Source: Nitrospirota bacterium (GTDB taxonomy: Bacteria > Nitrospirota > UBA9217). From it: 64,000 nucleotides of DNA. Both the position numbers and the translations under genes were made by a program. The notes under the pieces are model-generated. The model did not search any database, was not told the DNA's origin, and saw only the letters and a program-made list of their open reading frames with translations. Location: positions 273,327-337,326 of the forward strand of contig CAVWHO010000010.1 in assembly GCA_963754875.1 (NCBI GenBank), read 5' to 3'. Each line of letters begins with the position of its first letter. Positions within the stretch are counted from its first letter, which is position 1. This document shows, in pieces, positions 17,930 through 38,358 of this stretch.

Positions 17930-20549
17930 TCACTCCTCAGTCTGTTCCCGAAGGAACGCTGCCGGCCTTTGCCGTATGATTGAGAGGGAGGCCGCGAGAC
18001 CGACAACAATTACGAGACCGGTCGTTGCGAGGACCATCACGGTACTTATGCCAGCCAAGACATTGTAGGATACGTCGAGAGCGTGCCTACAGACAAGCCA
18101 ACTTACCGCCTGGGAGAGAACGAGCGCGATGAGGCCGCTTGCGAGCCCGATAAGCAGGCTTTCCACGGCAAAGACGGACAGGACGAATCGGCCCCGGGCA
18201 CCCAGGATCGTGAAATAGACAGCTTCCTGGATGCGCGTATAGCGTGTGGCGAACACGGAGCTTATAATGATAAGAATGCCGGCGACGACGCTGAAGAGCG
18301 TGAAGAAGCGGACGATCAGCGTGAGCCGTTCCATGACCCGGGCGAATACTCTCACGGTCTCCGTCACGTCGATGACGCTCACGTTCGGGAAACGGGAAAC
18401 AATACGATTTTGTAGCGGGGCAATCTGTTTTTTACCCACGCGCACGGCGGTGAAGACCGTCTGGGGAGCGTCCTTGAGTACCCGATCGGGGAAAACGAAG
18501 TAAAAGTAGGGCTGGAGTGCAGCGTGTGTCCTGGTCCTTATGCTCGAAATCCTGGCCTCGATCGGGACCCCCTGGATGTTGAACGTGATCCGGTCGCCGA
18601 TTTTCATATCTCGCATGTTCAGCACTGTGTCAAGGACCGACACCTGCGCCTCCGTCCAGTCATTACGAAAAAGCTTTTTTCCTGCGACGATCCGTTCGTC
18701 TTCCAGCAGACCTTCCCGATAGGTCAGATTGAACTCTCGTGCCAGGTTATCACCTCGTTTTTGCCGCTCCGCGTCCCGGTCGATCGGCTCGTTGTTCACT
18801 GCCGTGATGGTCCCCCGGACAACAGGGTAGTATGTGGCCGGGATCGCCAGGAATCGGCTGAATGCGTTCTGCTGGTCCGGCTGGATATCGATGAAGAACA
18901 GGTTGGGGGCATCGGGGGGGTAAGACCGGACGAAAGTCGCGTCGAGGTTCTTCTCCACAAGGGTGATTGAGAAAATGACCGCCAATGAAGCGGTAAGAGT
19001 GACGATGATCGACCTCGTCGCGTTCCCGGGACGGAACAGTCCTTTTAAAGCCTGCCGCAGTATAAGGTCCTTTGTTTGCAGCATTGTCGCCAAACGGAGA
19101 ATTGCCTCGGAGCAGATGACGGAGATGAGTACGAGAAGACCGACTCCGATGACAAAGTACAGTCCTGTTTTTATCTCGCGTATCCGCCAGAGGACCATGG
19201 CAATGAAAAAGATAATGCTTGCGCCGCCGGTGAGCCATGTTGCGCGGCTCTTGGCCTGCCGCTGGTCTTCCTTGCCGAAAATGGACCGTGGTTTGATCTC
19301 TTTGAGACGGTAAAGAGGGAGCAGGGTGAACAGAATCACCACGAGAGAACCGATTATGAGACCTTCCGCCACAGCTCCCCGGGGTATGGTCATTTCCACG
19401 TTGGCGGGAATGAGCCCGCGAAAGATGTACGGGAGAATTTTTTCAAGAAAAAAACTCGCGGCGAGTCCGAGGAGCGTCCCGACGGAGCCGAGGACTGCCA
19501 CGATAATGAAATAATGAGTGATGATAAAACGGCTGCTGGACCCCACTGCTTTCATGATGGCGATGGTCCGCTCCTGTTCCTTCAGAAAAGCGGTAAGAGA
19601 GCTCTGGATGCCTATCCCGGCGAGGAGCAGCGTAAATATCCCTATGAGGTTGAGAAAAAAAAGGAAATTGTCGAAGAAACGTTTCACTCCGGAATCGGCT
19701 GTCCGAAAGGTTTCTACACGTTCACGATCCTTGTTTGATGCGGCCCGGAGTTGATCGGTAATCCGGTCCAGCTCCGTCTCATGCAGGACTTTAATGAGGA
19801 TGGTGTAATTCACCCTGCTTCCCTTTCCCACAAGGTCAAGAGAGGGGATGTCAGCTGTGGAAATGAAGGTCCGCGGGCCAAGGGCAAAGAAATTTACCGG
19901 CCGGTCAGGCTCCTGGAGCACGACGTCACGGATGGTAAGGCGGGCGCTTCCAACCCTGAGACTGTCGCCAAGTTTGAGGTGGAGGCGGTCGAGAAGTGAC
20001 TGTTCAACAACGATGTTGCCCCGGGTCAGCATGTTCCCGAAGGGCGCCCCGGAGGCGAGCTCCAGAGTGCCGTAGAAAGGGTAGCCGGGGTCCACCACCT
20101 TGATCCCGGACAGGAGGGATTCTTGATTTTCATAGGCAGCGGCTGTCTGAGGCGTTCCTGCGCTCCGTCCCTCGGCGGTTTCCTGAAGCGCTTGCCCGTT
20201 TGACCTTGTTGTTTTCCCCTTTTTTCCCCCGGGATACGGCCCTCCTCGCATTCCTGTCAGTCTGCACAACCGAGTAGAATTCGTAGACGCGCGCGCTTTC
20301 TATTGCTTTTCGCTTTTCCAGAGAGTCGAGCTCGTCGAGAAGACCCGATGAGAACGGGGCATGCGAATGGATAATAATATCGGCGGCATGGAGGGCCCGG
20401 GCATCATGGAGAAAAGACGTGTGTACACTCCTGCTGAACCCGCCCAGAGACACCAGCGTTATCATGGACAAGATAACGCAGAGGACCAAGACGGCTGACT
20501 GGTGCATTGATCCGGCGATTTGGCGGCGAATAAAATGAATATTAAGCAT
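17930..20549 (-). CDS. YbbP-like ABC permease, split by one frameshift near 20210-20235
   Basis: ORF 20130-20549 (N-terminus, ARVYEFYSVV) and ORF 17930-20269 (KVVDPGYPFYG, APNLFFIDIQ) are consecutive parts of one permease; the overlap contains G5A6G4A4 runs. Confidence 0.85.
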
Positions 20550-21470: not shown

Positions 21471-22160
21471 ATGAAAAAGGTACTGCTGACGAATGATATA
21501 AAAAAACTCTTTACCGACCAAGGCAACTTTCTTGATCGTTCGGACATTAAGGTATTAACTGCGGCCACGAACGCCGAGTTACTGAAGATCCACCGGGAGA
21601 AAAAGGTAGATCTCATTGTTACCCAGTTGGAGGCGCCGGGGATCAAGAGCGAAAAAGTCTTTGACATCATCAGAGAGAACGAGGAACTGCGAAAAGTTTC
21701 CGTCATTATAATCTGCAATGATACTCTCGCGCACCGTGAGCGCTGCAAGCTGTGCCGTCCTAATGCGGTTTTTAGCATACCTGTTGATTTGCCCTTACTT
21801 TTCATAAAAATGCAGCAACTTCTCGATATTGCGCCGAGAAAGCACTATCGGGCCGCTCTCGCAGTCGGTATCCAAGGCAAATTCAAGGACCGGCCGCTTC
21901 CGTTTTGGACAGAAAATATCAGTGCCAGCGGCATGCTGATCAAGGCCGAGGAGCCCCTGTCAAAAGGCGATGGGATTTTTTTCTCATTCTTTCTGCCTGA
22001 CGGGACGCATGTCAGCGGATATGGGGAAATTACCCGCGTCAATCTTCCAGGAACGGAAGAAGGTACTTATCTTGACGGGATCAAGTTTACCACCATAGAC
22101 CCGGGGATTCGGTCAGCTATAGAAGCTGTTGTAAAGAAGAAAATACGGACATTGTCCTGA
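21471..22160 (+). CDS. Receiver-like + PilZ domain protein
   Basis: CheY-like N-terminus; PilZ motifs RKHYR and NISASG. Confidence 0.85.
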   Translation: MKKVLLTNDIKKLFTDQGNFLDRSDIKVLTAATNAELLKIHREKKVDLIVTQLEAPGIKSEKVFDIIRENEELRKVSVIIICNDTLAHRERCKLCRPNAVFSIPVDLPLLFIKMQQLLDIAPRKHYRAALAVGIQGKFKDRPLPFWTENISASGMLIKAEEPLSKGDGIFFSFFLPDGTHVSGYGEITRVNLPGTEEGTYLDGIKFTTIDPGIRSAIEAVVKKKIRTLS

Positions 22161-22987: not shown

Positions 22988-24040
22988 ATGGAGAATCTAG
23001 GGACCTATCGAGGGGAAGAGGTTAAACGTGGCATCGGGTTTGTTGAGGAAAGAGCAAACCGGTATACCGCACTTCTTTACGCAAAAACAGAGCAATACCT
23101 CAAAGAGCTGAGAGATTTTGAAGTGAGATGTTCTCAGCCAGGGGCGGACGGGGAGAAACTGCTTGAAGAGATGACAGCCCTGAATGAGTCGATGCTGCAA
23201 GCCTGTGCACAATTTGAACATGACGTGAACGATACATTTATCATTAAATCAGCACAGGTCGATTTCCGGGAAAAAACAAATCCTATCCTGTCCAAAAGCT
23301 ATTGCATCAACCGGGCCAGGGTATGGCCTCAAGGTCATCAGGGAGATTACAATACCTTGGAAATTGCGTACAAGAATTCACCAATGTCCGACGGCATAGG
23401 ATATTACCTGGACAAGTACGCGTTCAAGACGACAATTGCAGTCGCCGTGAGAGAACGGATCGTGACCCTGCGGGAACTTCTGAGAAAAGAGCTTATCAAC
23501 AGGCGCGGGCAGAAAGTCCTCGACGTGGCCTGTGGTTCCTGCCGAGAGGTCTTCGAATTGGCACCCGAGATCAAAGCATCAGGTGCCAAGTTCACTTGTG
23601 TTGATTTGGACGCCGATGCCCTGGATTTCGCCCTTGATCGTTTCGCGCTTGCAGGCCTTTCGGAAGATTACGTGGAATTGCGCAAATACAACGCTCTCAG
23701 GATATTCGACTACGAGACAGCGGTCACGGAATTCGGAATGCAGGACATTATCTACAGCGTCGGCTATTTTGATTATCTCCCCGACGATTTCCTCGTGAGA
23801 TTGTTGAGTTCACTGTATAAGATGCTCACGCCTGGTGGAAAACTCATTGCAGCCTTCAAAGACGTCAATCGTTACCGTCCGCAATTTTACCACTGGATCG
23901 TCAATTGGGACGGGTTCCTGCAGCGCGCCGAGGCCGATTTCGAAAGATTGCTTCAAATCGCCAAAATCCCCGGCAGTGCTATATCGATGTCCCGCGTCGA
24001 TTCGGGGGCAGTTATCTTCTACTCTATCACGAAAGAGTGA
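22988..24040 (+). CDS. Class I SAM-dependent methyltransferase, PhcB-like
   Basis: VLDVACGS motif I, CVDLD, DIIYSVGYFDYL, LTPGG; N-terminal RARVWPQGHQGDY resembles the KPxGYAGDY motif I recall for PhcB-type proteins; AGGAGG RBS. Confidence 0.85.
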   Translation: MENLGTYRGEEVKRGIGFVEERANRYTALLYAKTEQYLKELRDFEVRCSQPGADGEKLLEEMTALNESMLQACAQFEHDVNDTFIIKSAQVDFREKTNPILSKSYCINRARVWPQGHQGDYNTLEIAYKNSPMSDGIGYYLDKYAFKTTIAVAVRERIVTLRELLRKELINRRGQKVLDVACGSCREVFELAPEIKASGAKFTCVDLDADALDFALDRFALAGLSEDYVELRKYNALRIFDYETAVTEFGMQDIIYSVGYFDYLPDDFLVRLLSSLYKMLTPGGKLIAAFKDVNRYRPQFYHWIVNWDGFLQRAEADFERLLQIAKIPGSAISMSRVDSGAVIFYSITKE

Positions 24041-24122
24041 TTTGCTGTGTGGTGGAAATACCTGATGGCACGATGAACGCAGGGAAGGGCATGCTCCCTT
24101 GAGCAAGCAGCAAGGTTTTGCC

Positions 24123-24151
24123 TTGTAAAGGCTGGGGAACCGTGTTATAAA
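24123..24151 (+). promoter_or_regulatory. sigma70 promoter with extended -10 for the fab/PKS operon
   Basis: TTGTAA-17-TATAAA with TGn directly before the -10. Confidence 0.55.
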
Positions 24152-24189
24152 TGTCACGTTAGACCATCCACTCATTTCGGGAGCAGGGC

Positions 24190-24942
24190 CTGAGACAGAA
24201 TTCGCTCTTTAATAGGGTCGCGCTCGTCACGGGCGGGACGAGGGGTATCGGCCGGGCCATAGTCCTTGCTGTCTGTGGCGAGGGTGCTGATTGCGCATTT
24301 ACGTTTACCAAAGACCATGCGGCAGCAGACTCCCTCGTTGAAGAAATCATTCGAATGGGCAGAAAGGCACTGCCCTTTCAACTTGATGCGCGGGATTTTG
24401 ACGGCGCTAAAACGCTCGTTGACGAGGTGAAGAAACAGTTCGGAAGGCTCGATATCCTCGTCAACAACGCGGGAATAACAAAGGACAAGTCCCTCATGAT
24501 GATGAACAAGGAGGACTGGTCCGAAGTAATAGACATTAATCTTACCGGCGTTTTTAACACTGCACGAGCCTGTATCATCACCTTTCTCAAACAAAAAAGC
24601 GGGAACATCGTGAACATGTCATCAGTCAGCGGCATACACCCGCTCCCCGGCCAGGTCAACTACGCGGCGGCAAAGGCAGGCGTGATCGGCTTTACCAAAT
24701 CGCTGGCCAAGGAAGTGGCTCCCTATAACATCAGGGTCAATGCCGTTGCTCCCGGCTTTATCAACACGGAGATGACGGCAACGCTCAGCGAAAAAAACAG
24801 GGAAAGATTTTTGAACATGATACCGCTCCACAGATTCGGGTCCTCCGATGAAGTGGCGAAGGCAGTACTTTTTTTGCTCAGTGACGAATCCCGGTACATA
24901 ACCGGGCAGGTACTGCAGCTCGATGGGGGGTTGGGGATTTAA
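24190..24942 (+). CDS. fabG: 3-oxoacyl-ACP reductase
   Basis: In-frame upstream extension supplies VALVTGGTRGIG; NNAGI, YAAAK, VNAVAPG; likely CTG start at 24190 behind GGGAG. Confidence 0.9.
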   Translation: MRQNSLFNRVALVTGGTRGIGRAIVLAVCGEGADCAFTFTKDHAAADSLVEEIIRMGRKALPFQLDARDFDGAKTLVDEVKKQFGRLDILVNNAGITKDKSLMMMNKEDWSEVIDINLTGVFNTARACIITFLKQKSGNIVNMSSVSGIHPLPGQVNYAAAKAGVIGFTKSLAKEVAPYNIRVNAVAPGFINTEMTATLSEKNRERFLNMIPLHRFGSSDEVAKAVLFLLSDESRYITGQVLQLDGGLGI

Positions 24943-24949
24943 TCCAGTA

Positions 24950-26182
24950 ATGAGCCGAAGAATAGTAATTACCGGCATCGGAGTTCTCTCGCCTATTGCG
25001 ATCGGCAGAGAAGCATACTGGGAAGGATTGCGCCAGGGCAAAACGGGATTTCGCCCGGTGACTCTCTTTGACACTGCACCTTTTCGTGTCCACCTCGCAG
25101 GAGAGGTCCCTGATTTTGATGCGGTTTCATTCCTCGGCAAGAAAGGCCTGCGGGACCTCGACAGGAGCACAAAATTGGTATGCTCTGCCGCCAAACTCGC
25201 CATAGAGGACAGTAACCTTGAGATAACCGAGGCGAGTACCCACACCACGGGGGTCACCATCGGAACGACGTTTGGGAGTCTCCACAGCATCTCACAGTTC
25301 GACCGCTCGGGCCTCATCGAAGGGCCGCGGTCAGTCAATCCCTCGCATTTCCCGAACACCGTGATTAACTCTCCTGCCAGCCAGGTGTCCATCCGGTTTA
25401 AGATAAAAGGGTTCAACACCACCATTTCAACGGGTTTCTGCGCCAGCCTCGACGCCGTCTCTTATGCCACGGACTTCATACGGCTAAACAGGGCCGACGT
25501 TGTCCTTGCCGGCGGGGTTGAAGAATTGTGCGAGGAAACCTTCATGGGATTTCATAACCTCGGTTATCTGTCGGGTGGAGACGGCTCGGAGCCCCGCTGT
25601 TGTCCCTTCGACGCCCGAAGGAACGGAACCATTTTGTCCGAAGGAGCGGCCATTCTGGTCCTAGAGGATGAGGAACATGCGGTGAAAAGAGGCGCGACAA
25701 TTCTCGCAAGCGTTCTGGGGTACGGCAATGCCTTTGATCCTTCGGCAGACAGCTCCTTCGATCATGCAGGACAAGGGTTAAAAAATGCCAGTACTCAAGC
25801 CTTGAAAGATTCCTCTCTCAATCCGAAAGACATAGACTATATCTGCGGCTGCTCCAATTCAACGAAGGGGCTGGACAGAATGGAGACAAGGACCATAAAG
25901 GAACTTTTCGGCGAACATGCCTTCAAAATACCTGTCAGTTCAATAAAGTCCATGGTTGGAGAATGCTATTCGGCTTCCGGCGCGCTATCGCTCGCTGCAG
26001 CAGTAGGCGCGCTCCGTAACGCATTCATCCCACCCACAGTAAATTATCATGAACGGGATCCTGAGTGCGATCTCGATTATGTCCCCGGCAAGGCACGGCA
26101 AAAGCAGATAGAGAATGTACTTGTAATTGCAGCAGACCCATACGGCCAGAATACCGCCATCGTACTAGGTCGACACGCCTAG
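24950..26182 (+). CDS. Ketosynthase-like protein lacking the catalytic triad (chain-length-factor-like)
   Basis: FabF fold (IVITGIG, PFDARRNG, SEGA) but STGFCAS / ICGCSNST / KSMVGEC in place of STAC / HGTGT / KSMLGH. Confidence 0.85.
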   Translation: MSRRIVITGIGVLSPIAIGREAYWEGLRQGKTGFRPVTLFDTAPFRVHLAGEVPDFDAVSFLGKKGLRDLDRSTKLVCSAAKLAIEDSNLEITEASTHTTGVTIGTTFGSLHSISQFDRSGLIEGPRSVNPSHFPNTVINSPASQVSIRFKIKGFNTTISTGFCASLDAVSYATDFIRLNRADVVLAGGVEELCEETFMGFHNLGYLSGGDGSEPRCCPFDARRNGTILSEGAAILVLEDEEHAVKRGATILASVLGYGNAFDPSADSSFDHAGQGLKNASTQALKDSSLNPKDIDYICGCSNSTKGLDRMETRTIKELFGEHAFKIPVSSIKSMVGECYSASGALSLAAAVGALRNAFIPPTVNYHERDPECDLDYVPGKARQKQIENVLVIAADPYGQNTAIVLGRHA

Positions 26183-26249
26183 CACGCAGTGCATGCAGCA
26201 AGAAGTCTGACTTTTTTTGCACTCTGCACATGCCGAGATCAGGTGAACG

Positions 26250-26690
26250 ATGCAGCTTGACTTTGAAGAGATACAGAAACTCATACCTCAGCGATTTCCC
26301 TTCATCATGGTCGACAGGGTCCTTGAGGTCGAACCGGGGAAACACGCAATTGCCGTGAAGAATATTTCAGGCAATGATATGGTTTTTCTCGGCCATTTTC
26401 CGGAAAAGGCCATCATGCCCGGCGCACTCATCCTCGAGGCAATGGCGCAGACCGCCATCATTCTATTTGCGACAGACAGAAAAAACGAGAACGCTGACAA
26501 AAAACCGCTGTATTACTTCGGGTCGGTCAAGGCGCGATTTCTCCACCCTGCGGTACCCGGTGACCAGTTAAAGATTAAGGTCGTAAATGTTAAATTCCTG
26601 CCGAATGGTGCCTATGTGTCGGGCGAGGCATTTGTCGACGATAAAAAAATAGCCGAGGCGGAATTGGTATTCAGCATAAAGAATGAATAA
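26250..26690 (+). CDS. fabZ: 3-hydroxyacyl-ACP dehydratase
   Basis: PQRFPFIMVDRV, FLGHFPEKAIMPGALILEAMAQ. Confidence 0.92.
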   Translation: MQLDFEEIQKLIPQRFPFIMVDRVLEVEPGKHAIAVKNISGNDMVFLGHFPEKAIMPGALILEAMAQTAIILFATDRKNENADKKPLYYFGSVKARFLHPAVPGDQLKIKVVNVKFLPNGAYVSGEAFVDDKKIAEAELVFSIKNE

Positions 26691-27900
26691 GAGAGTCGTC
26701 ATAACAGGCTTGGGAGTCATATCTTCCATTGGTATCGGCAAAGACGCATTCTGGGACAGTCTGCTTCAGGGAAAGTCCGGCATAAGCCCTGTTACTGCCT
26801 TTGATACGACAAGCCATTTTACCCATAATGGAGGTGAGATAAAAAATTTTCATCCTGAAGAGTTCATCCTGAAGAAGCGGTTAAAGTTTATGAACCGTGC
26901 TACGCAAATGGTATTGGCTTCAACAAAACTTGCTTTGGAAGATGCAACATTAACTCGTGAACAACTAGTGGGCTATCGGGTTGGAGTTTCTCAAGGAACA
27001 ACAATGGGTGCAATCCATGCGATAGAAGAAATTGATCAAAGGCTTGTTAAGTCTGAGACGGTAGATAGGGAATTATTATGTCAGTTGCCTACGCATACGG
27101 TACCCTCAGCAATTGCTCGTGAACTGTCATTGTATGGTCCTAATGTTATGTTTTCCACAGCGTGTGCTGCTGGCAATTATTCTATCGCTTACGCCTATGA
27201 TCTAATCAGACTGAATAGAGCAGATATGGCGATTGCTGGAGCGTCGGATCCGTTTTCCCGAATCGAATTTACGGGTTTCAACCAGTTTTCGGCGGTCGCT
27301 CCTGAGAAATGTCAGCCTTTTGATAAAAACAGGAAGGGTATGATCTTGGCTGAAGGGGCTGGCACGCTTATACTAGAATCTCTAGAAAACGCCTTAAATA
27401 GAAAAGCCAACATTTATGCTGAAATTGGAGGCTATGGCCTTAGTTGCGATGCTCATCATATGACAAATGCTTCTATCGAAGGAATTGCGGAGTGTATGCG
27501 AAAGGCATTACGGGAGGCAAAGATTTCCGTGGATCAAGTGGACTATATCAGCGCCCACGGTACGGGAACACGAGCAAATGATCGCGCAGAATGTGCGGCC
27601 ATTAAAGAGGTCTTTGGGACACGGTATAGAGGAATTCCTATTAGTTCCATCAAGTCTATGCTCGGCCATACCATGGGTGCAGCTTCTGCTTTAGAGGCAA
27701 TTGCTTGTGCCCTTGCCGTAACCAATAATGTAATACCTCCGACGATAAATTTTGAGACGATAGACCCTGAATGCGACATTGATTGTGTGCCGAATCAAGC
27801 AAGAAAACACACTGTTAATATAGCCTTAAATAATTCATATGCTTTTGGTGGCAATAATGCTTGCCTGGTCTTAAAAAAAATAGCGGCTAAGGAGGATTAA
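26683..27900 (+). CDS. Beta-ketoacyl-ACP synthase (FabF-like, catalytically intact)
   Basis: STACAAG, SAHGTGT, KSMLGHTMGA, NSYAFGG. Confidence 0.93.
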   Translation: MNKRVVITGLGVISSIGIGKDAFWDSLLQGKSGISPVTAFDTTSHFTHNGGEIKNFHPEEFILKKRLKFMNRATQMVLASTKLALEDATLTREQLVGYRVGVSQGTTMGAIHAIEEIDQRLVKSETVDRELLCQLPTHTVPSAIARELSLYGPNVMFSTACAAGNYSIAYAYDLIRLNRADMAIAGASDPFSRIEFTGFNQFSAVAPEKCQPFDKNRKGMILAEGAGTLILESLENALNRKANIYAEIGGYGLSCDAHHMTNASIEGIAECMRKALREAKISVDQVDYISAHGTGTRANDRAECAAIKEVFGTRYRGIPISSIKSMLGHTMGAASALEAIACALAVTNNVIPPTINFETIDPECDIDCVPNQARKHTVNIALNNSYAFGGNNACLVLKKIAAKED

Positions 27901-27908
27901 TTATAACA

Positions 27909-28148
27909 ATGCCAGAAAATGTGGAAAAAGAAATAGCTTCGATAATCTCAGAGGTATCAGGACTTGATCCAGAAGAGATCACACCTGAAAAAAATTTTTT
28001 TAAAGATCTTGAAATCGACTCTATAAAAGCTATCGAGATTACCGTGGCAATTGAGAAAAAATTTAAAATATCAGTAAGAGATGAAGACGTCCCTAAAATA
28101 ACAACCGTTAAAGAGGCCGTAGAACTCGTAAATAAATTAGTAAACTAG
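27909..28148 (+). CDS. Acyl carrier protein
   Basis: 79 aa, acidic; DLEIDSIKAIE with phosphopantetheine Ser; AGGAGG RBS. Confidence 0.93.
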   Translation: MPENVEKEIASIISEVSGLDPEEITPEKNFFKDLEIDSIKAIEITVAIEKKFKISVRDEDVPKITTVKEAVELVNKLVN

Positions 28149-28161
28149 GGAAGTATCTCGC

Positions 28162-29599
28162 ATGCTAAAGACTAATAAAGATGCTTATGATGCGGTGATC
28201 ATCGGGGCTGGAATCAGCGGCCTAGTATGTGCCTGCTACCTTGCAAAGGGTGGCATGAAAATTCTTCTCGTAGAACAACATCATAAAACGGGAGGGTACT
28301 GTACTTCCTTTAAAAGAAAAAATTATAATTTCGATGCCGCGGCCCATTCTTTTGGCAGCTACCGTGAGGGCGGCATAATGAGAAAGATTTTGAGAGACTT
28401 GGAGGTGGACAAGAAACTCGGCATCCGGCGATATGATCCTTCAGATATTATTCTTGCGCCTGGTTATAAAATCAGTTTCTGGGCTGACAATCGCAAAACA
28501 ATAAGTGAATTACAGGTGGCATTTCCTCATGAGGCTGCTGGAATAAGCAGTTTTTTTCATTTTTTACAGAGGTTCAGGTCCTTTTCAAATGGCGACCTTG
28601 CGAAACAAAACTTTCAAAGATCTTTTAGATCAGTATATTACAGACGACCGGTTAAAAGCGATTCTTTCGTTTCCCATATTAGGAAATGGTGGCTTGCCAT
28701 CGTCACTGATTTCAGCCTTTACGGCTACAATATTGTACACCGAGTTTTATCTTGATGGTGGATATTATCCTGAGGGTGGTATGCAAGCGTTACCGGATGC
28801 TCTTGCAACCAGGTTTAAGGAACTTGGTGGCGAGTTAAGGCTCTCATGCCCTGCAAAAAAAATTAAAGTTGAGTACAATAAAACTGTTAGTGTGGTTGTT
28901 GGCGATGGTGAAGTCGTATCTACCAGATACGTAATATCTTGTTGCGACGCACGACAAACGTTTTTGAAGCTTGTGTCTTCTACAGCCTTGAATAATGATT
29001 TTTCGCGTACCATTCGAAAATTGCAGCCTTCTCCATCGTTTTTTATTGCCTATCTCGGCACCGATGGCTCCCCCCTGCCTTCATTGGAGCCTGGAGCCAG
29101 TGTATGGGTCATGCCAGATTATAAGATTGAAGCATTGTATGGTTCGTATATTAAGAAGAACGCTGTTGATAGTGCATCGGCCTTTATGCTTCGCGTCCCT
29201 CCTGATAATAGAAGTCTGCAGGCGTTTATCATTGCGCCCTATAAGAGCAAGCAATATTGGCGCAATAATAAACGTGAAGTCCTGGAGAACTTTGTTGCGA
29301 GAATCGACAGAATTTTCCCGGGTTTGTCCCCTCATATTCAGTACCGGGAAGCGGCTACGCCTTACACACTATACCGATACACCTTAAACTATGAGGGTGC
29401 AGCGTATGGGTGGGCAAGTATGCCTTCGCAGTTGTTCAGTCGAGGTTTAATGCAGACGACGCCCATTGAAAATTTATACTTAGCTGGCCACTGGACTACG
29501 CAGACGCAGGGGATTTCCGGTGCAGCTTATATAGGGAATGAAACAGCAAAGTTGGTTCTTAAAAAAGCGAAATCCCAGAGGGTTGTCGTACCTGTTTAA
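28162..29599 (+). CDS. Phytoene desaturase (CrtI)-family FAD oxidoreductase, one frameshift near 28550-28590
   Basis: GAGISG dinucleotide motif and GGYCTSF in ORF 28162-28755; YPEGGMQ, ATPYT..RYT, NLYLAGHW in ORF 28589-29599; T7/T6 runs at the junction. Confidence 0.85.
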
Positions 29600-29611
29600 T
29601 ATAAGAACTTT

Positions 29612-31765
29612 ATGGATAAAAAAAAGCTTTACATAGAAGAGAAGTTCAGCGAACTGTCAAAATTCTGGCTTGGCACGGTCCTTCTAATCGGCTCTGGACT
29701 TTTTTTGTTGCTAGGTGTTATGGATTATATAAGTACGCCAGAAAATTTTAGCAAGTTTATCATGTACAGACTTTTCGTCTCCATCTCCCTTGTCATATTG
29801 CATTTCTTCTCCAAAAAAATTTCCAATAGAAGACATTTCCTCATCATTTTTTCATTGGCAGTCATAATCTCTGCATTCAGTATCGAACTCATGATACTCG
29901 ACTTCGGCGGTCATCAATCTCCTTATTATGTGGGGCTGATTATTTTAGTTGTTTGCGTTTTTCTGATCCCGATTGATCTTGCTTTCTCATTATGGGGAAT
30001 CAGCCTGATATATTTTATATATTTAGTACCTACTGTACTTTTCGACCATATAATCCATTATCGCGTTTTTTTTACTTCCAATGCCTTCATGCTCTCATTC
30101 TTTGTCATAGCCGCCATTTGGCGCTATTGGAATCAGAGAAGTATTATCAACGAATTGTCGCTTCAGTACGATCTTGAGCAGCAGAATAAAAAACTCGAAA
30201 GCTACTCCGTCCAGCTCAAAGCCATGGTCGAAGACAGGACAAAAGAACTGGTCAAGTCTGAACAGTGGCACCGGTCTCTTGTTGACAATGCAACTGACGG
30301 GATCGTCGTCCTCGACAGAAACGGCATGATCATCAATGTAAATGATAAGGCCTGTGAAATGCACGGATTTACCCATGAAGCGCTGGTTGGCACCCACGTC
30401 AAGCTTCTTGAATCAGACAGCAAGAAAGAAGAGATGGCCGAAAGAATGAACCGCATCCTGAATGGCGAGAGCCAGGTCTTCGAATCCGTGCACAACAAAA
30501 AAGATGGAACGCCTTTGTATCTTGAGATCAGTTCTACGGCGATCACCATCGGCGATGAGCTGTTCATTCAGTCCTTTTACCGTGATATTACTGAAAAGAA
30601 AAAACTCCAAGAATATCTTTTCCAATCCCAAAAAATGGATTCGATCGGCGTTCTCGCCGGCGGCATTGCCCACGACTTCAACAATATCCTGACGGCAATT
30701 CTCGGTCATGCGTCAATCATGCGCCGCAGTGTCTTGGAGGACAAGGCCATGCACAGCCTGAACGTGATCGAAGATGCCTCGCGTAGGGCGGGGAGGATGA
30801 TCTCAAAGCTTCTCGGCTTCGCGCGCAAGAGCAACTATGAATTCGTGCCGCTCGATCTGAACGATATCGTCTACGAGACGGTGAAGCTTCTCGAAAAGGT
30901 CATTGACGCGAAGATCAGCATCAGTGTTGACCTCGACAACCGCCTTCCGTCCATCCAGGGAGATATGAACCATATCGAACAGGTCGTTATGAACCTCATT
31001 GTCAACGCCCGCGACGCCATGCCGAACGGCGGCCGCATCGTCATCAAGACGACAGCGGTAGAAATCGTCAAGGGCATGCCTGACGTGCCGCCTTACGTCC
31101 TGCCCGGAACGTATGTTCTGCTGAGCCTGACAGATACGGGTACGGGCATGTCCAAAGACGTCTTGGGCAAGATCTTCGAGCCGTTTTATACGACGAAGGA
31201 ACGCGGAAAAGGCACAGGCCTCGGCCTGTCTATGGTCTATGGGACCATTAAGGAACACAAGGGATACATTACGGTACAGAGTGAACTGGGCATGGGAACC
31301 GTCTTTACCATCTATCTTCCCGCCTCAATAGCCGCCGTTCGAACGGAAGTGAAGAGACCGGAAACTTCTGTCAGCGGGCATGAAACAGTACTGATCGTCG
31401 ACGATGAGCATGATATCTTGGGAGCGATGCAGGAGACCCTCTCGAGCCGTGGTTACAGAGTGTTTGCGGTCAACGATCCAAGTTCGGCTATCGACCTAGT
31501 AAAAAAGATGCCGCACGAAATAGACCTGGTGATAACGGACATCGTCATGCCCCGGTTAAACGGCAAAGAGCTTATCAGCCAGATAAAAACGATCAACGCC
31601 GACGTCAAGGTCCTTGCCATCTCCGGGTATACAAAATATGTCTCGCAGACAGATGAGATCGGGGAGATCAACGGATTTCTGCAGAAGCCCTTCGAGTCAT
31701 ACTACCTGCTGTCCGTGGTACGACGCATTCTCGATGCTCGACCCAATGATTTGGTCAAGACGTGA
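29612..31765 (+). CDS. Hybrid sensor histidine kinase (multi-TM sensor, PAS, HisKA, HATPase, REC)
   Basis: AGGIAHDFNNIL, NLIVNARDAM, GTGLGL, C-terminal IVDDE...TDIVMP...KPF. Confidence 0.95.
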   Translation: MDKKKLYIEEKFSELSKFWLGTVLLIGSGLFLLLGVMDYISTPENFSKFIMYRLFVSISLVILHFFSKKISNRRHFLIIFSLAVIISAFSIELMILDFGGHQSPYYVGLIILVVCVFLIPIDLAFSLWGISLIYFIYLVPTVLFDHIIHYRVFFTSNAFMLSFFVIAAIWRYWNQRSIINELSLQYDLEQQNKKLESYSVQLKAMVEDRTKELVKSEQWHRSLVDNATDGIVVLDRNGMIINVNDKACEMHGFTHEALVGTHVKLLESDSKKEEMAERMNRILNGESQVFESVHNKKDGTPLYLEISSTAITIGDELFIQSFYRDITEKKKLQEYLFQSQKMDSIGVLAGGIAHDFNNILTAILGHASIMRRSVLEDKAMHSLNVIEDASRRAGRMISKLLGFARKSNYEFVPLDLNDIVYETVKLLEKVIDAKISISVDLDNRLPSIQGDMNHIEQVVMNLIVNARDAMPNGGRIVIKTTAVEIVKGMPDVPPYVLPGTYVLLSLTDTGTGMSKDVLGKIFEPFYTTKERGKGTGLGLSMVYGTIKEHKGYITVQSELGMGTVFTIYLPASIAAVRTEVKRPETSVSGHETVLIVDDEHDILGAMQETLSSRGYRVFAVNDPSSAIDLVKKMPHEIDLVITDIVMPRLNGKELISQIKTINADVKVLAISGYTKYVSQTDEIGEINGFLQKPFESYYLLSVVRRILDARPNDLVKT

Positions 31766-32007
31766 CAGCCGTGTTTCCCGAAAAGTGTGTGTTTTATAGG
31801 TGCAGATTTGCGGTGTGTGGATTGGATGAATTGGGGTCATCGTCGGCCGAGATCGCACTCATGTGCGCGTGAGTACGGCCGTCATTGCTCGTGCGTGCGG
31901 TCAAGTGAGAGGGACAGGAATTAATGAAAAGTCCATTTCAGACACAATGTACCGCCTGTTTCTTTCTATTTGGAGAATTCGGTCAGAAACCCGTAAATTA
32001 TGAAAAG

Positions 32008-32027
32008 TAGTGCCGCTGACCGGAATC
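32008..32027 (-). repeat. Short duplicate of the tRNA-Leu 3' end (att-like)
   Basis: TAGTGCCGCTGACCGGAATC matches 18/20 of 34786-34805. Confidence 0.7.
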
Positions 32028-32156
32028 TCACTCGATTTGCTTCCCGATGAGGCCTGCCCCCTAAGGTGCTCCCCCGAAGCATGGGGTATCTTTCACCCTA
32101 TTCTCCCCGTTGTTCAACCCCGCTCAGCAGAGAACAAGTAGGCAAGGAGGAATTAA

Positions 32157-32199
32157 TAGTGCCGCTGACCGGGATCGAACCGGCAGGACAGTTGCCGGT
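32157..32199 (-). repeat. Duplicate of the tRNA-Leu 3' half (att-like)
   Basis: 39/43 match to 34786-34828, including 25 bp exact. Confidence 0.9.
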
Positions 32200-32324
32200 G
32201 ATGAAATAGATGAAAACGGTGCACTCGCCCTGCATAACCCTGTGCAGATGGATATCGGATAAAAAGTTTTTGCGATAGCGGTGTCCGCTCTTCGGCGTAT
32301 TCCGAAGGGACAAGGAGGTAAGTC

Positions 32325-34700
32325 GTGACAAAAGAACAGTATGTCGATGAGCGTTACACTGCCCAACTCCACTACTGGGCAACGCTCGGCCTCGGGGTGG
32401 GCTCTCTCATCGTCCTCATGCTTGTTCCTCTCGACTATGCGACCGTTCCGGCTCAATTCCGCTCATTTTTGGTATACCGTCTCGTCGCCGCAAGCATCCT
32501 TTTTTTGCTGTATCTGGTCAACAGAAAAAGAGTAAATAGTGGTCTGCAGAACAGCTCCATAGTCACAGCAGGCGCAGTGGTCGCCGCCATGGTGGCCGCT
32601 ATGGTCCACGACTTCCACGGTCATGAGTCGCCCTATTACGCTGGGTTCATCCTCGATGCCATATACGTCGCCGCTATCGTCCCGACATCATTCGGAGTAA
32701 ACGTGCTCGCCGCGCTGCTCGTCTACTTCATTTACCTAGCGCCCATCCTTGCATACGACACGATCACGAACAAGCCATACTTCATGTCGGCGAATATCCT
32801 GATGCTTGCCTCATTTGCATCGCTGCTCCTGCTCCAGTATCTTAGGGGCAAGCAGACCCTGAAACAGTTCGATCTCGAATATGAGCTGCGCGCGAGCGAA
32901 GAGGAACTGCTTTATTTCCAAATGGCTGTGGCCAGCGCCACAGATGCAATAGGTATATCTACGCCTGATGGAAGGCATTATTATCAAAATGAGGCTTTTA
33001 CTAATTTGTTCGGGTCATCGGTTAGTAAAGTAGCCGGTGCTTCAGAGCCACCGGCAACCATATACGCCGATGAAAAAGTGGGAAGGAAGATTTATGACAT
33101 AATTATGAAAGGTGGTTCGTTCGCCGGCGAAGTGCAAATGTTCGATAAGAATAATGACCTAAAGGATATTTATGTTCGGGCATATTCTATTAAAAATAAA
33201 GAAGATAAAGTTGTCGGCCTAGTCGATATGCACACCGACATCACCGAGCAACGGCAGGCTGAGAAAAGACTCAGAAAGAGCGAAAGTCAATTACGCGAGT
33301 CCCAGAAGGTCGCCAAGCTGGGGAATTGGGATCTCGATCTTGTTTTGCAGAAACTTGAATGGTCGGATCAGACGTTCAGACTGTTCGATAAAAACCAAAA
33401 GGAGTTTGTGCCGTCCTTTAATGAGTTTACCCGGTTAGTGCATCCAAACGATCTTGATACGATGATGACCAATTTTGATAATGTGCTGAACAGCGACTCT
33501 CCTCACTACCATACGGTTGTCCGGATCATCAACGACTCTGGTCGCGAGTGGGTAATGGAAGCCCTTGGCGTTGTCAGGCGAGATACTTCCGGTAAGGCCC
33601 TCAGTATCTTTGGTACCGCTCAGGACATCACCGAACGTAAGCATGCCGAGAAGAAAATTCGACAGAGCGAGCAGTTCATCCGCAACATCCTCGACACAGT
33701 GGACGAAGGATTCATTGTCATTGACACTAATTATCGCATCCTGATAGCCAACAAGGCATACTGCAGCCAGGTGGGCGGTTGCGTTGAGAATATTATCGGA
33801 CATCACTGCTATGAGATATCGCACAAAAAATGCCGGCCCTGTTATGAAGAGGGCGAGAACTGCGCGACACACCAGGCAATTGAAACGGGCAAGCCTCATT
33901 CCGCATTTCACTATTACAAAGACGCCAATGGAAATATTCTTTATGTAGAGACCAAGGCCTTCCCTATCAAAGATGCATCCGGAACCGTAACCTCTGTCAT
34001 TGAGACGATCAACAATATCACCGAAAAGCACCTTCTGGAAGAGGAAAAGAGACACCAGCAGGAGAAAGAGAAGATCCTCATGGACATTCATGACGGGATC
34101 GGCGGCATAACGACCAATATCAGCCTGCTGTCCGAGGTGGCCCGGAAGGCGCAGTCCCCGGAAGACGTCAACAGGGCGCTCGCCACCATCGCGAACCTGT
34201 CGCGGGAGGGTTTGGGTGAGATAAGAAGCCTCATGCACAGCCTTGACAGTAAGGACCTGAGCTGGCATGCTTGCGTCGCGGAATTGAGAAACCAGGGCAT
34301 GTCGATCGTCAAGGCCCACAAGATATCCTTTGACATGACTTCACAAATTGATGACGTCAGCGGCGAGCCCGGAAGCATTTTATATTTGAACCTATTCAGG
34401 ATTTACCGTGAAGCCCTCACCAATATCGTAAAGCATTCTCAGGCAACCAAAGTCGTCGTCAGTTTCCGGGTCTGCATGGAGGACCTGACTTTGACCGTGC
34501 AGGACAACGGCCGGGGACGGGATCGTTCTGCCACCCTGAACCGAGGCAGGGGGTTGACCAATATGAAAAACCGGGCAAATGAGATCGGGGGGGCAGTCAC
34601 TGTCTCGACGGATGAGGGGACGTGCGTCTGTGTCACGGTTCCACTCCTCATGAAATCCCCAACCAGCCCGATTGAATTTTCGAAAAAGGTTCTCGAATAA
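32325..34700 (+). CDS. Sensor histidine kinase (multi-TM sensor, three PAS, HisKA_3/NarX-type kinase)
   Basis: MDIHDGIGG, REALTNIVKHS, QDNGRG, GLTNMKNRA; N-terminal domain homologous to 29612-31765; AGGAGG RBS. Confidence 0.93.
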   Translation: MTKEQYVDERYTAQLHYWATLGLGVGSLIVLMLVPLDYATVPAQFRSFLVYRLVAASILFLLYLVNRKRVNSGLQNSSIVTAGAVVAAMVAAMVHDFHGHESPYYAGFILDAIYVAAIVPTSFGVNVLAALLVYFIYLAPILAYDTITNKPYFMSANILMLASFASLLLLQYLRGKQTLKQFDLEYELRASEEELLYFQMAVASATDAIGISTPDGRHYYQNEAFTNLFGSSVSKVAGASEPPATIYADEKVGRKIYDIIMKGGSFAGEVQMFDKNNDLKDIYVRAYSIKNKEDKVVGLVDMHTDITEQRQAEKRLRKSESQLRESQKVAKLGNWDLDLVLQKLEWSDQTFRLFDKNQKEFVPSFNEFTRLVHPNDLDTMMTNFDNVLNSDSPHYHTVVRIINDSGREWVMEALGVVRRDTSGKALSIFGTAQDITERKHAEKKIRQSEQFIRNILDTVDEGFIVIDTNYRILIANKAYCSQVGGCVENIIGHHCYEISHKKCRPCYEEGENCATHQAIETGKPHSAFHYYKDANGNILYVETKAFPIKDASGTVTSVIETINNITEKHLLEEEKRHQQEKEKILMDIHDGIGGITTNISLLSEVARKAQSPEDVNRALATIANLSREGLGEIRSLMHSLDSKDLSWHACVAELRNQGMSIVKAHKISFDMTSQIDDVSGEPGSILYLNLFRIYREALTNIVKHSQATKVVVSFRVCMEDLTLTVQDNGRGRDRSATLNRGRGLTNMKNRANEIGGAVTVSTDEGTCVCVTVPLLMKSPTSPIEFSKKVLE

Positions 34701-34785: not shown

Positions 34786-34874
34786 TGGTGCCGCTGACCG
34801 GGATCGAACCGGTACGACAGTTGCCCGTCGAGAGATTTTAAGTCTCTTGCGTCTGCCAATTCCGCCACAGCGGC
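34786..34874 (-). tRNA. tRNA-Leu(TAA)
   Basis: GCCGCTG...CAGCGGC-ACCA acceptor stem, anticodon arm AGAGA-CTTAAAA-TCTCT, long variable arm, GGTTCGATCC T-loop. Confidence 0.97.
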
Positions 34875-36572: not shown

Positions 36573-37367
36573 ATGAAGCGAGTCTCGTTGATTTTCTGTG
36601 CATTGCTGGTTGTGGCGCAAACGTCAGGGGCCGAGCCTACCCGCCCGGTGCTGCACGATAATGTAAAGACCGTAAACCATGCTTTCTCTGCGGGAGAAAA
36701 GCTGACTTACAGCGTCAGCTGGTCCACTGTCATAGAAGCCGGCATCGCCGTCCTGGAGGTGAAGGAGGGAAACGAGGTCGAAGGCAAACCGACATACGAT
36801 CTCCTTTCGAATACGAGGTCTGTCGGCGTCCTCGATCTGGTCTATCCTGTGCGGGATACGGTTGAGAGTGTTATCGATGCGCATGAACTGTACAGCCTGT
36901 CGTTTCGCCTTCAGGAAAGTCACGGGAAAAAGACGCGGCAGCGGACCATGGACTATGATCGCGCCAAAGGCACGGTCCGCGTTTCCGTAAATAACGGCAC
37001 ACCGGCAATATACGCCGTGCCGGACCGTATTCAGGATGCGCTTTCTTCGCTCTACTACGTCCGCACGCGGGATGATTTTGTCATCGGGAAGGCGATCGTT
37101 GTGGACGTTCACGACGGCGACAAAACCTATGCCGTCGAAGTGCACGTGATGGGCAGGGAACATATCAAGACGCCCGCAGGAGAGTTCGATACCATCAAAG
37201 TCAAGACCTATCCGAAATACGAAGGCGTATTCATGCACAAGGGCGAGATCTACATGTGGCTTACCGATGATGCGCGAAAAATACCCGTGCTTATGAAGAG
37301 CGAGATAGCCATAGGCTCCATCGTGGCCACGCTCGTTGATATACAAGAAAGAAAGGACCAGCCATGA
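36573..37367 (+). CDS. DUF3108 domain-containing exported protein
   Basis: GEKLTYSVSW, QDALSSLYYVR, TPAGEFDTIK, WLTDDARKIPV. Confidence 0.85.
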   Translation: MKRVSLIFCALLVVAQTSGAEPTRPVLHDNVKTVNHAFSAGEKLTYSVSWSTVIEAGIAVLEVKEGNEVEGKPTYDLLSNTRSVGVLDLVYPVRDTVESVIDAHELYSLSFRLQESHGKKTRQRTMDYDRAKGTVRVSVNNGTPAIYAVPDRIQDALSSLYYVRTRDDFVIGKAIVVDVHDGDKTYAVEVHVMGREHIKTPAGEFDTIKVKTYPKYEGVFMHKGEIYMWLTDDARKIPVLMKSEIAIGSIVATLVDIQERKDQP

Positions 37368-38358
37368 TTTCAAAAACGGAAAACAAACGGTTTAACAGCG
37401 TCATCGACCGTTTTCCGTCCACCCGCATTCTCGTCGTCGGTGACATCGTGCTCGACCATTATATCTGGGGAAAAGTCTCCCGCATATCGCCCGAAGCGCC
37501 GGTCCCCGTCGTGAACGTGACCAAGGAAAGCCTGCTTCTGGGCGGTGCAACGAACGTTGTGCAGAACATCCATGCGCTCGGCGGTTCGGTAAGCGTGTGC
37601 GGCGTGATCGGCACGGATGATGCGGGGAGGCAACTCCAGCGCCTGCTCCGTTCCCAAAAAATTACCACCGACGGCCTCATTATGGAACCAACCAGGCCGA
37701 CGACAATCAAGACCCGCATCATCGCGCATAGTCAGCAAGTCGTACGCTTCGACCGCGAGACAAAAGACCGCATCGGAAAAGACACACACCGGAATGTATT
37801 CGAGTTTGTCAAACGCCGGATAGCGGAGGGTCTCGACGCAATCGTACTGTCCGATTATTGCAAGGGCGTCGTCACCAGGGAACTCGTGAAGGACATCGTC
37901 CGGCTGGCAAAGAAAAACCGGGTGATCGTGTCCGTGGACCCGAAAGTGAGCCACTTCGGCATGTACAGCGGCGCCACGATCCTGACGCCGAATGCCAACG
38001 AAGCCGCGATCGGCTCCAAGATCGAGATCCAGGATGACCAATCTCTCCTTAGGGCGGGAACCCTCCTGCTTAAAAACCTCAGATGCGCCGCCGTATTGAT
38101 CACCCGCGGTGAGCAGGGGATGAGCCTTTTTGAACAGGGGGAAAGGTCACCCACATTCCGACCGTCGCCCGTGAAGTATTTGATGTGACCGGTGCAGGCG
38201 ATACGGTCATCAGCGCCCTTACGCTTGCAATGGCGGCCGGCGCCAGCATGCTGGATGCGGCCAGGATTTCGAATTATGCGGCCGGCATCGTTGTCGGGAT
38301 CGTCGGCACAGCAACGGTAACACCTGAAGAATTGAAAGAAAGAATAACTCATAGCTGA
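37364..38358 (+). CDS. rfaE1: D-glycero-beta-D-manno-heptose-7-phosphate kinase, frameshift near 38140
   Basis: [23 protein letters not shown]; another frame continues [21 protein letters not shown] to TGA 38358; G5A3 run at the junction. Confidence 0.9.

Follow-up and report, generated by a model that had tools for sequence, protein, structure and literature searches.

A cluster of co-oriented genes in a 64,000-nt stretch of an uncultured Nitrospirota bacterium contig (the window, to whose positions coordinates refer unless a contig or locus is named) is probably a signalling operon of the Phc type. It encodes an S-adenosylmethionine (SAM)-dependent methyltransferase of the PhcB family (MT), a private synthase that would make a short, tailored methyl ester, and a membrane kinase, HK1, that would sense it. 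Judged from these genes, the product is likely a strain-specific lipid signal made and sensed by the same bacterium.

Operon organization

All operon genes lie on the + strand, and the co-oriented run claimed in a first-pass annotation of this DNA was borne out, with every gene at its place. The MT (22988..24040; 350 aa; Pfam Methyltransf_12/25/20) is followed by a FabG-like ketoreductase (24190..24942; TIGR01830 above cut-off), a chain-length-factor-like (CLF-like) inactive ketosynthase (KS; 24953..26182), an anammox-type FabZ dehydratase (26250..26690; its Ile70 equals Ile69 of amxFabZ), an active KS orthologous to anammox FabF2 (26683..27900; TACAA, SAHGT and LGHTM intact), a dedicated acyl carrier protein (ACP; 27909..28148; PF00550) and a CrtI/phytoene-dehydrogenase-like FAD enzyme split by a +1 frameshift (28162..29599). 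The hybrid kinase HK1 (29612..31765) ends the run and has six predicted transmembrane (TM) segments, which form a PhcS-like sensor at aa 1-200, ahead of PAS, HisKA, HATPase and REC domains. Intergenic distances from fabG through HK1 are 10, 67, -8, 8, 13, and 12 bp. The CLF-like KS is an ortholog of anammox FabF-mut by its PDB match, and its catalytic triad is replaced: Phe, Cys, and Glu occupy the positions that hold Cys, His, and His in an active KS.

The open reading frame (ORF) finder placed the start of FabG at 24355, but the true start is the CTG at 24190 behind GGGAG, which is kept as CTG in several relatives. A sigma70-type promoter, TTGTAA-17-TATAAA, is predicted from the sequence within the operon, ahead of the cassette (24123..24151, +); its elements are identical in loci L031-L034 and L036, with variants in L037 and L038. 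No FabD, phosphopantetheinyl transferase (PPTase), enoyl reductase (ER), or thioesterase is present within the gene cluster. Comparing 21 upstream regions gave no sigma54 site or common operator 5' of the MT, promoter and terminator scans returned results at chance level, and the Rfam scan had a tRNA as its sole match. Relatives named by NCBI are Nitrospirota, and in the ESM Atlas the MT falls closest to a cluster made up mostly of Nitrospirota proteins.

Conserved linkage in Nitrospirota

The MT was searched for in a phylum sample of 301 genomes (87 rows, including the window's own genome), with matches in 73/301. From these we took sixty MT loci, picked for long contigs and spread across families, of which fifty-five were assessable for a kinase. 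A CLF follows the MT in 36/60 loci: thirty-one end in a PhcS-like kinase, four run into a contig edge and one (L065) stops after the CLF. In another 19/60, a PhcS-like kinase follows the MT directly, with no cassette between them. The remaining 5/60 comprise three loci with a different seven-transmembrane (7TM)-like kinase, one at a contig edge and one (L085) without a kinase. A PhcS-like kinase is thus found behind the MT in 50/55 assessable loci and any membrane kinase in 53/55. This gene-neighbourhood survey, which the first-pass annotation had proposed, found the MT-cassette-kinase linkage conserved in thirty-one of thirty-two assessable cassette loci.

Orthologs of the CLF occur in 44/301 phylum genomes, forty-three of which also have the MT; in the other one (G299) the cassette has a kinase further on. 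Among fourteen genomes picked for the minimal MT-kinase pair, thirteen lack a CLF ortholog (best match ≤39%) and one (G091) has it elsewhere. In a quick MT tree rooted on a long branch, the thirty-four MTs that go with a cassette group together in a single clade (SH-aLRT 100) lying among the minimal-pair MTs, with one state change; a single insertion of the cassette into a phcB-phcS-like pair is the simplest history. The tailoring genes vary among loci: a B12 radical SAM gene is present in L033, L048, and L051, a second methyltransferase in L037, L055, and L075, and several cassette loci lack FabG, FabZ, or CrtI. The Nitrospirota loci contain no acyltransferase or lipid-export gene, and no transporter or resistance gene is conserved across them. 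Small toxin-antitoxin-like, IVP, and nuclease-like genes are inserted within the cassettes of L051 (5782-10821), L054, and L061.

Relation to PhcB and PhcS

The Phc system (phcBSRQ with PhcA) is present in Ralstonia, Cupriavidus, and Paraburkholderia and uses methyl 3-hydroxypalmitate and methyl 3-hydroxymyristate as signals. Our comparison was made with a Paraburkholderia operon identified by its architecture, not with the Ralstonia proteins. Two plasmid searches, one with an MT family member and one with HK1 aa 1-200 (a single match among 72,556 records), converge on adjoining genes of Paraburkholderia graminis pPHS1_P. This operon encodes an MT of 468 aa with Arg22, a kinase of 445 aa whose H-box His is residue 233, and two receivers without a DNA-binding domain. 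Published descriptions give RSSC (Ralstonia solanacearum species complex) PhcB as 464-468 aa and PhcQ as 336-337 aa (PMC8578825), PhcB Arg22 as conserved across Ralstonia, Cupriavidus, and Paraburkholderia (PMC6989110), and His230 as the phosphorylation site of PhcS (PMC11960443). The P. graminis operon fits phcBSRQ in its PhcB-like length and Arg22, its His233 kinase and its two receivers lacking a DNA-binding domain, though its first receiver has only 134 aa, unlike PhcR with 368-374 aa. It lies on a conjugative plasmid (L211, 8596-12971), 5' of genes that include one for a PelD-like protein.

Against this operon, the window's MT has 27% identity to the phcB-like MT (E 2e-14; family profile 148 bits), so the earlier claim of a PhcB-like enzyme holds in the sense of a PhcB-related one. 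The homology covers the SAM motifs and the N-terminal substrate motifs; the MT lacks an N-terminal extension of ~120 aa found in PhcB and many relatives. The first-pass annotation had also proposed both kinases as sensors of the system. For HK1 a PhcS-related sensor is supported, its membrane domain being 29% identical to that of the phcS-like kinase (E 4e-13); for HK2, a second kinase further downstream, the resemblance is there (25%, E 1e-10), but relatives do not keep this kinase next to the cluster. Between themselves, the membrane domains of HK1 and HK2 have 29% identity (E 5e-33). A profile of the Nitrospirota sensor (TM) domain scores 72 bits on the Paraburkholderia kinase, where 500 shuffles reach at most 10.2. 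The outcomes that the first-pass annotation named as damaging, an MT from an unrelated family or kinases not conserved beside the fab genes, did not turn up for HK1. Among 120 MT homologs listed, ten carry the automatic JGI label of 3-OH-PAME biosynthesis. Pfam has a weak match, MASE8, to the HK1 sensor domain, and sequence search found no solved structure related to the MT.

Judged by gene content, the operon would function in the manner of Phc and has homologs of both key Phc proteins, yet it is not a phcBSRQ operon. As in Phc, a homologous SAM methyltransferase stands 5' of a kinase with a homologous 6TM sensor of ~200 aa, and in both systems the sensor varies independently of lineage. Here, however, a private KS/CLF-ACP cassette of six genes separates MT and kinase, whereas phcS directly follows phcB. 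HK1 is a PAS-containing hybrid with no PhcR/PhcQ receiver gene after it, the MT is without the PhcB N-terminal region, and identity to the phc-like pair is only 27-29%. It is also the CrtI-like gene, and not the MT, that the sensor varies with.

Many relatives carry a PilZ domain fused to the MT, in place of the separate REC-PilZ protein (21471-22160, +) found 5' of the window's MT. The RxxxR motif is present in 45/46 long MT homologs; the fusion hints at control of the synthase by cyclic di-GMP. The N-terminal region of PhcB was considered as a degenerate PilZ domain and found unsupported (-0.1 bits, below shuffles). Family MTs also occur beside a membrane GGDEF-EAL protein in Rhizobium plasmids (L212, 3541-6756) and, in Pseudanabaena (L213, 5896-8515), convergent with a kinase that weakly matches the sensor profile.

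Exchange of the CrtI-like gene and the sensor

A low-GC block extends from inside the KS gene (about 26.9 kb) via the CrtI-like gene to the end of the HK1 sensor (near 30170), both of its edges being intragenic. DNA identity to L031, a locus of the same genus, is about 0.85-0.93 before 26.9 kb, lies at 0.47-0.82 between there and 30.1 kb, and recovers to about 0.8-0.9 inside HK1; at the left edge in the KS it falls from about 0.9 to 0.62. GC at third codon positions (GC3) drops from 0.57-0.63 to 0.28-0.48 in the block and then returns to 0.58-0.68. Protein identities to L031 are 85% for the MT, 91% each for FabG, CLF, and FabZ, 77% for the KS, and 84% for the ACP, then 49% for CrtI and 38% for the sensor, followed by 86% for the kinase core and 87% for REC. 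The corresponding values for L061, from another family, are 46% for the MT, 58% for the kinase core, 62% for CrtI, and 61% for the sensor. In contigs of close relatives from sequencing runs X1, X3, and X4 (two studies), the kinase core matches and the letters are unlike 5' of 30167-30179. Read cover is lacking from 27 to 30 kb in those runs, the site of the CrtI frameshift included, which was not used as evidence by itself.

Among the seventeen loci in which each of the six proteins is nearly complete, distances between sensors track those between CrtI proteins (partial rho 0.53, p 0.001, a p-value that overstates the support because related loci are not independent); the partial rho of sensor distance is 0.10 with KS, 0.15 with CLF, -0.04 with MT, and 0.07 with the kinase core. 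In trees of eighteen loci, sensor and CrtI share 8/15 splits (four strongly supported in both), sensor and kinase core 1/15, and MT and kinase core 8/15. The approximately unbiased (AU) test rejected all foreign topologies, that of CrtI included, but the sensor alignment fits the CrtI tree with a loss of 62 log units, compared with 348-364 for the other trees. These patterns indicate that the CrtI-like gene and the sensor domain are exchanged between lineages as one block. Weighing against a functional meaning of the joint exchange, CrtI and sensor are neighbours, so that linkage and conserved flanks alone could produce it.

Exchangeable signal types are known mainly from peptide systems. In agr of Staphylococcus and comQXP of Bacillus, a hypervariable block spans the signal-determining gene and the kinase's sensor half, with conserved sequence on either side. 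The variable block described here resembles these in holding a putative signal-determining gene and a sensor between conserved flanks; it differs in that their signals are peptides, and we claim no homology. Within the RSSC, PhcB and PhcS are reported to group by signal type, not by lineage (PMC8578825).

The frameshift in the CrtI-like gene, which the first-pass annotation missed, is near 28567-28580, directly after runs of seven and six T. The gene is whole in L031 and L061. One of thirty-two genes in the assembly's test set is split. Since CrtI is absent in L036, L055, and L075 and a mere stub in L043 and L045, genuine loss does occur, and the frameshift may be either an assembly artefact or such a loss. 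If genuine, the strain would produce an untailored form of the signal.

Relation to anammox Cluster I

The first-pass annotation proposed a private type II fatty-acid or polyketide synthase beside the MT. This was borne out as a cassette; what had been missed is its identity with the core of anammox Cluster I. The best PDB match of the CLF is 9s5h_C (E 2.6e-120, against 1e-78 for canonical FabF), that of the KS is 9s5h_B (E 2.5e-144, with 6kxd second), and those of FabZ are 8ayd/7qv0, its five best all ranking ahead of canonical FabZ; we took 9s5h and 8ayd/7qv0 as anammox proteins from the papers' descriptions. All twenty-five aligned Nitrospirota copies of FabZ have Ile at the position of the window's Ile70, and anammox FabZ is described with Ile69 in its tunnel (PMC10139942). 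Identities to named Brocadiales loci are 53-56% for the KS, 45-49% for the CLF, 42-51% for FabZ, and 41-47% for the ACP; in direct comparison, the CrtI-like protein is 32-36% identical to the phytoene-dehydrogenase-like (PDH-like) protein of these loci.

Cluster I (kuste3603-3608) consists of amxACP, amxFabZ, amxFabF2, amxFabF-mut, a PDH-like gene and a B12 radical SAM gene, and has been proposed for ladderane synthesis. The window shares with it the FabF2/FabF-mut pair with its dead CLF triad, the FabZ Ile and the PDH-like flavoprotein (frameshifted here); a B12 radical SAM gene is a further common feature in three of the Nitrospirota loci. It differs in not keeping the order ACP-FabZ-KS-CLF-PDH-rSAM, in the addition of FabG, MT, and kinase, and in missing the B12 radical SAM gene, which occurs in 3/36 cassette loci at about 29% identity. 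On this gene-level comparison the operon contains the core of Cluster I without being Cluster I itself. The Nitrospirota radical SAM protein was rejected as an anammox ortholog, being at about 29% only, with named close relatives in Fibrobacterota and Spirochaetes. A search of five anammox genomes found no member of the MT family, and one of five genomes found no copy of the sensor domain; both negatives are weak for want of a positive control.

In two papers, Cluster I is called unique to ladderane producers, with no direct experimental link to ladderanes, and its enzymes are reported to prefer C6-C8 chains in vitro (10.64898/2026.05.19.726425; PMC10139942). Both argue for a role in ladderane biosynthesis partly from the exclusivity of Cluster I to anammox bacteria. 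This argument is weakened by the existence of close orthologs with a defined end enzyme and receptor. The wider spread of the cassette is not wholly new, since antismash 'ladderane' clusters of unknown function have already been reported in non-anammox phyla including Omnitrophota (10.1101/2022.12.20.521206). The Nitrospirota operon offers a small, expressible gene set for learning the product of the KS/CLF-FabZ-PDH core. A more distant likeness is to the highly reducing type II polyketide synthase (PKS) of ishigamide (Iga11/Iga12), which also has a KS/CLF heterodimer with ketoreductase (KR), dehydratase (DH), and ACP and no ER (E 7e-102 vs 2.5e-144); there is no adenylation/nonribosomal peptide synthetase partner here, and the cassette is coupled to a receptor.

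Proposed function and alternatives

In the proposed mechanism, KS and CLF would use malonyl units to assemble an acyl chain carried by the private ACP, with the host supplying FabD and PPTase, while FabG would reduce and FabZ dehydrate it. The chain is likely short, and unsaturated or 3-hydroxylated, given the lack of an enoyl reductase in the cluster and, by analogy, the C6-C8 preference of the anammox orthologs. The FAD enzyme, in some loci together with a B12 radical SAM enzyme or a second methyltransferase, would set the signal type. The MT would then methylate the carboxyl group to an ester, which may at once off-load the chain, and the ester would diffuse, bind the 6TM domain of HK1 as a cell-density signal and start a phosphorelay, whose output is not encoded at the locus. 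PhcB reportedly methylates free acids in vitro; if the MT does the same, a host thioesterase would be needed.

Several observations weigh against this reading. Identity to the phc-like pair is just 27-29%, and the reference is a Paraburkholderia operon picked by its architecture. Members of the MT family are also found where a PhcS-like partner is absent (on Rhizobium plasmids, as the end domain of a trans-AT PKS, and in L085), no PhcR, PhcQ, or PhcA-like partner is present within the operon, and the release step is unexplained because the cluster has no thioesterase.

The anammox orthologs, moreover, have been proposed for membrane lipids, and six Omnitrophota loci combine the cassette with a hydrolase and lack a kinase. 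The best of the alternatives is that the cassette yields a cell-bound modified lipid, with HK1 a feedback sensor of a lipid or membrane property and no intercellular signalling. A cassette near plsX/fabH-like genes without a kinase (L119) is in keeping with this, as is the fact that an intramembrane sensor would likewise need to match its lipid. We nevertheless consider it unlikely. By established chemistry a methyl ester would prevent incorporation into phospholipids, the Nitrospirota loci lack the acyltransferase or export gene noted above, nineteen loci have the MT-kinase pair without any cassette, and three orphan sensors of this family are encoded in the genome.

Somewhat less probable still is a signalling locus in which the MT primes malonyl-ACP in the manner of BioC, or performs other SAM chemistry, so that the signal has another head group. 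The MT has no solved relative and the cluster no thioesterase, and in the Omnitrophota-type loci described below the same slot holds reductases that would give aldehydes or alcohols. Homology of the MT to PhcB over both SAM and N-terminal substrate motifs speaks against this, as does the position of a family member at the chain-release end of a trans-AT PKS (KS-ACP-MT); the mutual exclusion of MT and release enzymes in those loci argues against priming in particular. A polyene pigment or antimicrobial whose production the kinase regulates by an unrelated cue has the anatomy in its favour (KS/CLF, KR, and DH without ER, as in polyene type II PKSs, with 6kxd the second-best KS match) but is improbable, because the sensor tracks the tailoring gene and not the core of its own kinase, the cassette is younger than the MT-kinase pair, and the loci show no conserved transporter or resistance gene.

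Full-text literature searches, covering few subscription papers and judged by titles and abstract starts, yielded no paper on a PhcB-like MT with a KS/CLF cassette and kinase, or on Phc signalling in Nitrospirota. Fatty-acid methyl-ester quorum sensing has been described for Ralstonia and near relatives. If the Phc-type signalling reading is true, such signalling would be old and common in Nitrospirota (MT in 73/301 genomes, CLF in 44/301), with its own biosynthetic line and exchangeable signal types.

Related cassettes in other phyla

A CLF motif scan of GTDB genomes gave at least 119 stretches, eighty of them listed; the counts in this section are among those matches listed. Accessory-protein profiles were built from the same loci, with most seeds checked against Pfam. 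The MT is present in all ten Nitrospirota loci with upstream DNA, and a PhcS-like kinase in all seven that reach far enough. Thirteen loci with the anammox gene order lack a neighbouring MT or membrane kinase of these families. A HisKA_7TM kinase is found in thirteen loci of the Omnitrophota type, and twelve of these have exactly one of three enzymes: a PhcB-like MT (two), an acyl-ACP-reductase-like protein that matches PigE and AAR (five) or a thioester-reductase-like protein (five). Six other loci, of Omnitrophota, pair the cassette with a hydrolase and lack a kinase. The rest of the listed loci are short, partial or of other types.

The mutual exclusion of MT and reductases suggests that the MT fills the chain-release slot, as does a trans-AT PKS on an Enterobacter ludwigii plasmid (L091, 9631-12768), whose last module ends in KS-ACP-MT, with a PhcB-family domain at the usual place of the thioesterase. 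It is conceivable, although we regard it as doubtful, that the KS/CLF-ACP-FabZ-PDH core is a cross-phylum synthase of short acyl signals, finished by lineage-specific enzymes and read by lineage-specific kinases. Nitrospirota would finish with the PhcB-like MT and read with the PhcS-like sensor; Omnitrophota-type loci would finish with one of three interchangeable enzymes and read with the 7TM kinase. Tailoring gene and sensor would be swapped as signal types, with orphan sensors listening to other types. Enzymes of the PhcB family would serve to off-load chains from ACP, with anammox Cluster I a relative that lacks a receptor and need not make a ladderane.

Larger KS/CLF clusters were also seen in L116, L124, L168, L102 (Bacillota), L117, and L137, most with several B12 radical SAM genes and none with an MT or kinase of these families.

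HK2 and orphan sensors

HK2 (32325..34700, +), with six predicted TM segments (a PhcS-like sensor), PAS domains, HisKA_3, and HATPase, begins 559 bp behind HK1. It is flanked by a tRNA-Leu(TAA) gene (34786..34874, -; ARAGORN, Rfam) and by two partial copies of the tRNA 3' end, att-like scars of 20 nt (32008..32027; 90-95% identity) and 50 nt (32150..32199; 86%). The claim that HK2 belongs to the system is not supported: none of the fifty kinase-bearing loci has a second PhcS-like kinase, and among these are twenty-six cassette loci in which the sequence was followed as far as about +15 kb. No full-length HK2 ortholog was found among forty relatives, and close relatives in runs X1 and X3 have HK2 at the same place. 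Its PAS part has 58-76% matches to other proteins, while a paralog on contig C20 matches the kinase core at 91% identity. We therefore rejected HK2 as a second cognate receptor; the best reading is that this mosaic gene was added recently, at a site of insertion by the tRNA.

A census of the genome gave a single MT against four clear sensors of this family, leaving three orphan sensors. Besides HK2, kinases with a PhcS-like sensor are encoded on contigs C3 (5044-6981, -) and C19 (78062-81388, -) of G000, and contig C22 has a weak stand-alone sensor match (99153-99887, -); none is beside an MT. In a quick tree, the HK2 sensor groups with those of L048 and L039 and the contig C3 sensor with that of L052 (both SH-aLRT 99). 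HK2 and the two other orphan sensors likely read the signal types of other strains.

Neighbouring genes and indels

The upstream TesA/ABC genes and the REC-PilZ gene were considered as operon members and ruled out, since they are not conserved across the relatives' loci. The ABC permease (17930-20549, -) of the ybbA/ybbP/tesA-type run reads as two ORFs that overlap, 20130-20549 and 17930-20269, probably through another indel. An rfaE-like ORF (37364-38188, +) has an apparently out-of-frame tail, a possible further indel, and a fabF-like gene on contig C20 of G000 (277914-276680) is broken into three frames.

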